Positions 19,437 through 19,937 of a DNA stretch of 26,490 nucleotides are shown in pieces. Numbering within the stretch: the first letter of the stretch is position 1; each line of letters opens with the position of its first letter. Source of the DNA: Saprospiraceae bacterium. Lineage in GTDB: Bacteria > Bacteroidota > Bacteroidia > Chitinophagales > Saprospiraceae. The notes under the pieces are model-generated. The model saw nothing but the letters and a program-made list of their open reading frames with translations. It did no database searches and was not told the origin of the DNA. The stretch covers positions 1 to 26,490 of the forward strand of contig JAHDCE010000001.1 of the NCBI GenBank assembly GCA_020630045.1, given 5' to 3'. Both the position numbers and the translations under genes were made by a program.

Positions 19437-19937
19437 ATGATTAATAAAAAAGTCATTTTGACTGGTAACTTCGGTGTAGGAAAAACATCTTTGTTTAACC
19501 GCTTTTTCTACAATCGCTTTAGTGATAAATACTTGACCACTATTGGTGTAAAGGTCGATAAAAAAGTTATTCAAGTCGAAAACAAAGAAATTTCAATCTT
19601 GCTATGGGATATCGCAGGAGAAGTATCACAAGATAAAGTTCCGAATTCTTATTTCTTAGGAGCTTCGGGTATCATCTATGTTTTTGATTTGGCTCGACCT
19701 TTGACATTTAATAACATTGTCAAGGATATCGAACATCTTAAAGAGATGATTCCGGACAGCATCGTGAAAATCGTAGGAAACAAAAAAGACTTACTTAGTG
19801 AATCCGCCTTAGCAGAAACACTAGAGGAACTAGCCTTGGAATGCGACATTATTACCAGCGCCAAAACAGGAGAGAATGTCGAAGATCTCTTTGAAAAATT
19901 GGGGATGGATTTATTAGCACTGGAACAAATGAAATAA
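19437..19937 (+). CDS. Rab/Ras-like small GTPase (stand-alone, 166 aa)
   Basis: G1 GNFGVGKT, G2 YLTTIG, G3 WDIAGE, G4 NKKD, G5 TSAKTG, plus Rab-like segments IGVKV, YFLGA and IIYVFDL. No C-terminal Cys prenylation motif. Confidence 0.93.
   Translation: MINKKVILTGNFGVGKTSLFNRFFYNRFSDKYLTTIGVKVDKKVIQVENKEISILLWDIAGEVSQDKVPNSYFLGASGIIYVFDLARPLTFNNIVKDIEHLKEMIPDSIVKIVGNKKDLLSESALAETLEELALECDIITSAKTGENVEDLFEKLGMDLLALEQMK

Follow-up and report, generated by a model that had tools for sequence, protein, structure and literature searches.

A Group 1 Rup small GTPase in a Saprospiraceae genome and its PAS-helix neighbour, a candidate effector and trans-acting GTPase-activating partner

Group 1 Rup proteins (Rup1) were defined in 2014 by Wuichet and Sogaard-Andersen (Genome Biol Evol, PMC4316618) as GTPases that have the Ras-like motifs G1 to G5 without the glutamine of G3 and that are never coupled to MglB. 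Their neighbourhood encodes a coiled-coil protein (DUFY), DUFX (often followed by a transmembrane (TM) segment and OmpA), the GTPase and a signalling output protein, for which GGDEF/EAL domains and histidine kinases (HKs) are named as typical, and the N-terminal region of this output protein bears an invariant glutamine that was proposed to act in trans (PMC4316618). Table S2 of the same paper gives the order DUFY>DUFX>Rup for six Flavobacteriaceae, with GTPases of 161–165 amino acids (aa). In published trees Rup1 stands beside eukaryotic Rab/Ras/Rho/Ran, and a 2024 preprint grouped the bacterial Rup1 with Rab/Ras/Rho/Ran and Asgard RasL. Here we analyzed 26,490 nucleotides of a Saprospiraceae bacterium (assembly GCA_020630045.1, contig JAHDCE010000001.1, positions 1 to 26,490 of the forward strand; this whole stretch is called the window below), in which the gene of a small Ras-like GTPase is directly followed by that of a 363-aa protein. 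The family, the missing G3 glutamine and the proposal of a glutamine in trans have been known since 2014 (PMC4316618); what is new here is the assignment of a predicted PAS domain plus helix to the partner protein together with a docking model backed by controls, the range of partner architectures, and the stress on an aromatic residue at the position of Ras Gly12. Taken as a whole, the locus is best explained as a Rup1 switch in its canonical module, with a partner that would be its effector and possibly also a GTPase-activating protein (GAP) acting in trans, a reading to which we give slightly better than an even chance.

The open reading frame (ORF) of the GTPase is as described in the initial annotation, which had been made from the letters of the DNA alone: the ATG is closely preceded by the Shine-Dalgarno-like, purine-rich GGGAGAGGA, the stop codon overlaps the start of the downstream gene (TAATG), and the product carries a complete G1 to G5 set, with Thr35 as G2 and with the DxxG aspartate kept in G3 (D58-I-A-G61). 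Searches against Pfam gave 108 bits for Ras (E 4.8e-31), 84 bits for Roc and 44 bits for Arf, and the nearest solved structures were Rabs (Sec4, Rab11, and Rab1, E ~2e-23), which bears out the view that the protein is closer to Rab than to MglA or Arf; traits of Arf/Sar proteins were lacking also in that the P-loop begins at residue 10 and leaves no room for an N-terminal helix. In NCBIfam the generic model TIGR00231 (small_GTP, 78 bits) was the only match, and no Rup-specific model was found there. The HMMER alignment to Sec4 and Rab11 placed Phe12 at the Rab serine that corresponds to Ras Gly12 and Glu62 at the catalytic glutamine (Ras Gln61; beyond switch I the residue numbers of the GTPase are those of Ras plus one), in agreement with the annotated Phe and Glu at these two positions. 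The protein ends in ...LLALEQMK, as expected without a CAAX tail, has no CC or other prenylation motif, and its sole cysteine is internal; beside Thr35, where an arginine finger in cis of the MglA or G-alpha type was looked for, no arginine was found and the position is T or S. With fewer than 240 aa, a single domain, a retained DxxG, no G3 glutamine, the neighbourhood described for the group, a glutamine in the product of the fourth gene and no Robl_LC7, the GTPase very probably belongs to Rup1.

The 363-aa protein encoded downstream (19937-21028) had no match in Pfam or NCBIfam. Its N-terminal domain was modelled by AlphaFold2 with a predicted local distance difference test score (pLDDT) of 87 as a sheet of five strands with helices and, after it, a long helix (residues 109-149) that carries Gln120 and Asn123, and the best Foldseek matches were PAS/LOV domains with exit helices (YtvA, YF1), so that a PAS fold with a long exit helix is predicted for this domain. 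Q120 and N123 were the only invariant columns of the domain in an alignment of 46 sequences, and Gln120 was also kept in 68 of 68 further loci. The first ~130 residues are constant across five partner architectures, whereas the rest of the protein diverges widely, with outputs that comprise HisKA-HATPase-REC (with or without Hpt), a PAS-sigma54 activator, a pseudo-kinase, or none. The output encoded in the window is a pseudo-kinase, in which the H-box SHE.R.PLN reads KILLTPMGA, the asparagine of the N-box is lost, and the G1 and G2 boxes are deleted; its orthologues in Roseivirga and Polaribacter are intact kinases, and the pseudo-kinase form recurs in at least 37 metagenomic homologues of like length, all but one without a recorded Pfam match. 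A profile of the partner domain gave a single match in the genome of the window, at the gene next to the GTPase, and in a sample of 301 genomes of the phylum it matched strongly in 12, in 11 of which the match lay directly beside the GTPase gene. The distribution of the GTPase itself is patchy, since it was found in 12 of the 301 sampled genomes and in 0 of the 5 from the family-level group of the window; counted over all bacterial species genomes, it is nonetheless abundant.

The GTPase (alignment of 131 rows) was modelled in complex with the PAS-helix domain (46 rows), GTP and Mg being included, and the prediction reached an interaction prediction score from aligned errors (ipSAE) of 0.84, against 0.36 for the best of three controls; the three runs of the complex had at least 94% of their contacts in common, with a partner pLDDT of at least 82. 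The predicted interface comprises residues 12-13, 32-42, 55, 57, 60, 69-75, and 86-89 of the GTPase and residues 50-59, 70-78, and 112-134 of the partner, and the pairs with the lowest predicted error are T34-Q120, T34-N123, F12-N123, G13-N123, and Y32-Q120/N123. As Gln120 and Asn123 lie near F12/G13, Y32 and T34 in the model, both would be placed where the gamma-phosphate site opens, and strand 70-78 of the partner is predicted to pair with residues 36-42 (beta2) of the GTPase, so the modelled footprint resembles that of a GAP with the strand pairing of an effector added to it. To our knowledge, no complex of a PAS domain with a GTPase has been solved, and recall of a known structure by the model therefore seems unlikely. 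On this evidence, the PAS-helix domain probably binds the GTPase directly, and the model supports, without proof, a partner that combines the roles of effector and trans-finger GAP. Either slow intrinsic hydrolysis or a different GAP mechanism had been anticipated in the initial annotation; the second idea, in the form of partner-dependent hydrolysis, now leads and fits the modelled complex. That G3 lacks its glutamine, and that another may be provided in trans, had already been published in 2014 (PMC4316618).

The two odd residues turned out to be traits of a large bacterial family rather than of this one protein. A total of 2521 near-length homologues were retrieved, of which the best 120 are 64-75% identical to the GTPase, come mainly from Bacteroidota metagenome bins and, where named at all, are called 'small GTP-binding protein' or 'Rab family GTPase'. 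GxFGVGKT/S was present in all 120 and DIAGE in nearly all of them, Phe12 was found in at least 90% of the 131 aligned homologues and Glu62 in at least 90% of the close ones, and Y32, T35, G37, N115, K116, D118, S141, and A142 were invariant in the 131 sequences. More distant homologues linked to the module have F, Y, A, I or S at position 12 and E, T, S, R or G at position 62, with Q in none, and the latter position was E in 68, T in 13 and D in 1 across 80 named genomes (Saprospiraceae at 60-75% identity, Lewinella, Aureispira, Roseivirga, Flexithrix, and Polaribacter at ~50%). Judging from these alignments, almost the whole family has an aromatic residue at position 12, and this residue is better conserved than the glutamate. 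Since Glu62 varies in module-linked members, it is unlikely to be catalytic itself, and a role as catalytic base was set aside.

We propose that the GTP-bound GTPase would use switch I, strand beta2, its P-loop (Phe12/Gly13) and switch II to dock against the edge of the PAS sheet and the exit helix of the partner, and that binding at this signalling helix would set the state of the attached output, be it the dead HK of the window or, in relatives, a live HK-REC(-Hpt), a PAS-sigma54 activator or none. Gln120 and/or Asn123 would lie over the nucleotide pocket and may replace the missing glutamine in cis, which would make the partner both effector and GAP; Phe12 would serve as a hydrophobic docking residue that also keeps out a classical arginine finger, and DUFX would likely be an exchange or input factor. 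The parts of this proposal differ in strength. Catalysis by Gln120 and Asn123 as trans fingers, as suggested by the model, is a serious possibility that we place somewhat below an even chance, and more tentative still is the idea of the PAS-exit-helix domain, as encoded behind every Rup1 gene, as a new kind of effector-GAP for Ras-like GTPases, in which the GTPase would take the place of the PAS 'ligand' and clamp the helix that drives the output, the helix Gln (with the Asn) would act in trans and Phe12 would be the docking pin.

Several points weigh against the combined effector-GAP reading and are gathered here. The complex score is a confidence of the model and not a measurement, and although its mark of 0.84 is attained by 58 of 80 solved complexes and by 2 of 110 mismatched pairs, these benchmark counts are rough, and our own alignments and ligands differ from the calibration of the tool. 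Glu62 is not among the confident contacts of the complex, and Asn123, found in 57 of 66 further loci, gives way to Q, H or M in ~9 of them. A joint change in the clade of Polaribacter and its kin, where the GTPase has T34S and E62T and the partner has Q119N, counts in favour of the reading, and residues 34 and 119 touch in the model, but this covariation is a single evolutionary event and remains anecdotal. The conservation of Phe12 is also less strict than it may appear: across the 80 named genomes position 12 was F in 79 and Y in 3, a count inflated by a search pattern that included F, and in an unbiased set of representatives at 50% identity F is still the commonest residue there, but L, I, V, S, A, H, P, G, and others occur as well; in some of these representatives, which form subgroups of unestablished context, the Gln61 position is still Gln. 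The pseudo-kinase output points to no downstream target, and a literature search on Rup GTPases returned only papers on plant RUP (UVR8) and phylogenetic studies, with no experiments on the family.

The incomplete conservation of Asn123 and the missing contact of Glu62 would also suit a PAS-helix protein that is a pure effector, with Gln120 and Asn123 conserved only for binding or for reading the state of the switch, and with DUFX (as an MglB- or longin/Roadblock-like protein) or dimerisation of the GTPase providing the GAP activity. DUFX is linked to the GTPase as tightly as the PAS gene is, and Roadblock partners are GAPs of MglA that donate no catalytic residue (PMC4316618). We nevertheless regard such a division of labour as fairly unlikely, because the predicted contacts cover P-loop residues 12-13 together with Y32 and T34, a GAP-like footprint rather than the switch I/beta2-only one of an effector, because Gln120 stays invariant also in partners that lack an output domain, and because GAPs of the MglB type need a Gln and an Arg in cis, both of which this GTPase lacks. 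A bulky residue at position 12 and the loss of Gln61 impair GAP-stimulated hydrolysis in Ras, and a protein with these two classical hydrolysis-killing changes and without an arginine finger in cis near Thr35 could be an essentially non-hydrolysing pseudo-switch, constitutively bound to GTP like Rnd, RhoH or RGK proteins and run by expression or sequestration. This is improbable in view of the nucleotide-contact motifs and of Y32, T35, and G61, which are invariant across deep divergence, and of the invariant polar pair of the partner, which faces the active site in the model; the conservation of two dedicated accessory proteins with the GTPase likewise suits a regulated cycle.

An origin as the detached Roc domain of a split Roco protein, or by recent horizontal transfer of a eukaryotic Rab, would take the GTPase out of Rup1 altogether, and it could draw on the Pfam Roc match, on the name 'Rab family GTPase' that NCBI gives to some homologues, and on a metagenomic protein (P0158) with a Rup-like G domain fused ahead of Roc-COR-EAD11. 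The phylogeny against Roc and Rab that the initial annotation had suggested was computed as a careful maximum-likelihood tree of 64 rows, to which Bacteroidota Roco proteins contributed 11 Roc domains and eukaryotes 10 domains of the Rab type, including one confirmed to be RabA1/Rab11; the 2014 reference Rup1 sequences (e.g., Celal_1350) were not among the rows. The Roc domains (100/100), the Rab domains of eukaryotes (98/91), and the 21 Rup proteins linked to the module (99/83) each fell on one side of a branch, the last clade containing both the GTPase of the window and that of Polaribacter (Flavobacteriaceae), and the former was found only within sets of Rup rows and unlabelled representatives, outside the Roc and Rab clades. 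When the window protein and Roc were constrained to one clade, the tree was 21.3 log-likelihood units worse, and the approximately unbiased (AU) test gave p 0.0725, which is suggestive but not below 0.05 and hence no formal rejection, a result that mostly reflects the attachment point of the long Roc stem; in an AU test on a quick tree the constrained tree even scored higher, the free search having been short and incomplete. No LRR or COR gene adjoins the GTPase in the window or in ~90 syntenic loci, consistent with the annotation of a stand-alone protein outside any Roco protein. The genome has its own Roc-COR-A-COR-B gene on another contig (C414; L002:206-2104), open at the contig end, whose product starts directly with Roc without an LRR ahead and is unrelated to the operon of the window; its Roc domain is 25% identical to the GTPase over 75 residues and scores as a true Roc (Roc 69 vs. 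Ras 25 bits), whereas the GTPase scores higher with Ras than with Roc. Given these neighbours, the separate Roc clade and the Roc-COR gene elsewhere, a split-Roco fragment was rejected, and together with the missing prenylation cysteine and more than 570 matching stretches in a collection of bacterial species genomes this makes either origin extremely improbable.

Rup1-type G domains (GNFGVGKS / WDIAGE) fused to other modules were seen in four metagenomic proteins (P0158, P0166, P0239, and P0297). The G domain of P0158 is 44% identical to the GTPase of the window and precedes a full Roc-COR-A-COR-B-EAD11, while the others sit behind an N-terminal EAD11 'effector-associated domain'. These fused G domains nest among the Rup proteins in the tree, and the Rup type may have been recruited into architectures of the conflict-system kind.

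The coordinates of the module and of its motifs are collected in Table 1. The order coiled coil, DUFX, GTPase and output protein is that of the Flavobacteriaceae rows of Table S2 (PMC4316618), and it is repeated in other genomes of the phylum and in nearly all of the 80 named Bacteroidota loci. The true start of DUFY is likely an internal ATG near 18193, and its homologues occupy the same position at 60+ related loci. DUFX had BLASTP matches to proteins of 280-307 aa and of 626-636 aa encoded just upstream of GTPase homologues, and the long forms, which occur in other lineages, contain one TM segment, BON and OmpA. No Pfam match to Robl_LC7 (MglB) was obtained with any operon protein. The suggestion that membrane targeting must come from a partner found no support in this lineage, as a hydropathy scan predicted no TM segment in the four operon proteins and TM segments appeared only in the DUFX partners of other lineages; membrane anchoring was accordingly rejected for this lineage.

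Table 1 Features of the Rup1 module in the window
Feature	Position	Strand	Basis or remark
DUFY, small coiled-coil protein, first gene of the module	18136..18543	+	only weak coiled-coil-type Pfam matches
DUFX, 289-aa soluble protein directly 5' of the GTPase	18545..19414	+	no Pfam/NCBIfam match
Rup1 small Ras-like GTPase	19437..19937	+	166 codons + TAA; 166 aa
G1 P-loop GNFGVGKT, residues 10-17	19464..19487	+	HMMER alignment, motif reading
Phe12 codon TTC	19470-19472	+	Ras Gly12 position
Switch I and strand beta2, Y32-L-T-T35-I-G-V-K-V-D-K42	19530..19562	+	predicted main docking surface
G3 / switch II DIAGE, residues 58-62	19608..19622	+	HMMER alignment, motif reading
Glu62 codon GAA	19620-19622	+	Ras Gln61 position
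G4 NKKD, residues 115-118, guanine specificity motif	19779..19790	+	
G5 SAK, residues 141-143	19857..19865	+	
PAS-like N-terminal domain and long exit helix of the 363-aa protein	19937..20386	+	AlphaFold2, Foldseek; putative GTPase-binding domain
Gln120 codon	20294-20296	+	on exit helix
Asn123 codon	20303-20305	+	on exit helix
Degenerate HK module (pseudo-HK) of the 363-aa protein	20387..21028	+	alignment to intact HK orthologues

Variants of the module were also observed. At 31 of 68 loci the GTPase gene is followed by one whose product consists of the PAS domain and helix alone (114-157 aa), with the invariant Gln retained; such loci include L033, L037, L042, L043, L046, and ~25 more from Saprospiraceae. 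In one family of the phylum the partner domain is followed by PAS and AAA+/HTH_8 in an activator of the sigma-54 type (L024:5534-7270, L027:3978-5780 on the reverse strand, and L028:3905-5656 on the reverse strand). At a locus with a distant homologue (L029, G144:C194) the GTPase gene lies on the opposite strand from the coiled-coil and DUFX-OmpA genes, the GTPase has Ser at position 12, and that genome gave no match to the partner domain; the module may have decayed or been rewired here. The divergent gene upstream in the window (16533-17855, reverse strand), which matched DUF7033 and, below the cut-off, the NCBIfam model of the VimE deacetylase, is probably unrelated to the GTPase operon.

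Compared with the 2014 description of Rup1, the locus shares a single domain of ~160 aa, the lack of the G3 Gln, the order DUFY>DUFX>Rup and a fourth gene with an invariant Gln, but this fourth gene encodes a dead kinase here; stand-alone PAS-helix and PAS-sigma54 outputs are absent from the outputs given in the cited parts of that text, which do not comment on the almost universal aromatic residue at the position of Gly12 either (PMC4316618). The locus adds no new family; it turns the glutamine-in-trans speculation of 2014 into a concrete two-protein case, consisting of the GTPase and partner residues 1-150, with Gln120, Asn123, Phe12, and Thr34 as the positions of interest. With Rabs (Sec4, Rab11, Rab1) the GTPase has in common the best sequence matches, the TIGV of switch I/interswitch, the WD.AG. 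segments and the single domain, yet it differs from them by the lack of a C-terminal prenylation Cys, by WDIAGE in place of WDTAGQE, by Phe instead of Ser at the Gly12 position, by a separate clade, and by the segment after switch II, in which the RabF3 type is not conserved. Roc domains resemble it in their Ras-like G domain and through the Pfam score of 84 bits, and they differ in that the GTPase has no COR and branches separately. The MglA/MglB and actinobacterial conservon (CvnA-D / Mfp) systems are likewise small-GTPase operons tied to a histidine kinase and to an accessory protein of the Roadblock/longin type; however, their GTPases are of the MglA family, in which G3 is atypical and lacks the DxxG Asp, G1 and G2 are separated by an insertion, and a Robl_LC7 protein, MglB, is encoded next to the GTPase (PMC4316618), whereas the GTPase of the window has DxxG, aligns to Rabs over G1 to G3 without gaps, and has no Robl_LC7 neighbour.

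If the proposed mechanism is true, a Ras-like switch would be wired into two-component signalling via a PAS domain, trans-finger GAP chemistry would exist in bacteria, and it would be the effector that determines how long the signal lasts. Rap, which is without Gln61, receives from Rap1GAP an Asn thumb that is carried on a helix, and TBC RabGAPs act with a dual finger of Arg and Gln, so in both cases a carboxamide is supplied in trans, as is proposed here. Both precedents are cited in the 2014 paper (PMC4316618). Unlike in the RapGAP and TBC systems, the partner at this locus would be a PAS-fold sensor domain, unrelated to either of their folds, and it could provide a bacterial precedent for trans-finger catalysis of the Rab/Rap type in the very group that has been placed closest to eukaryotic Ras/Rab.

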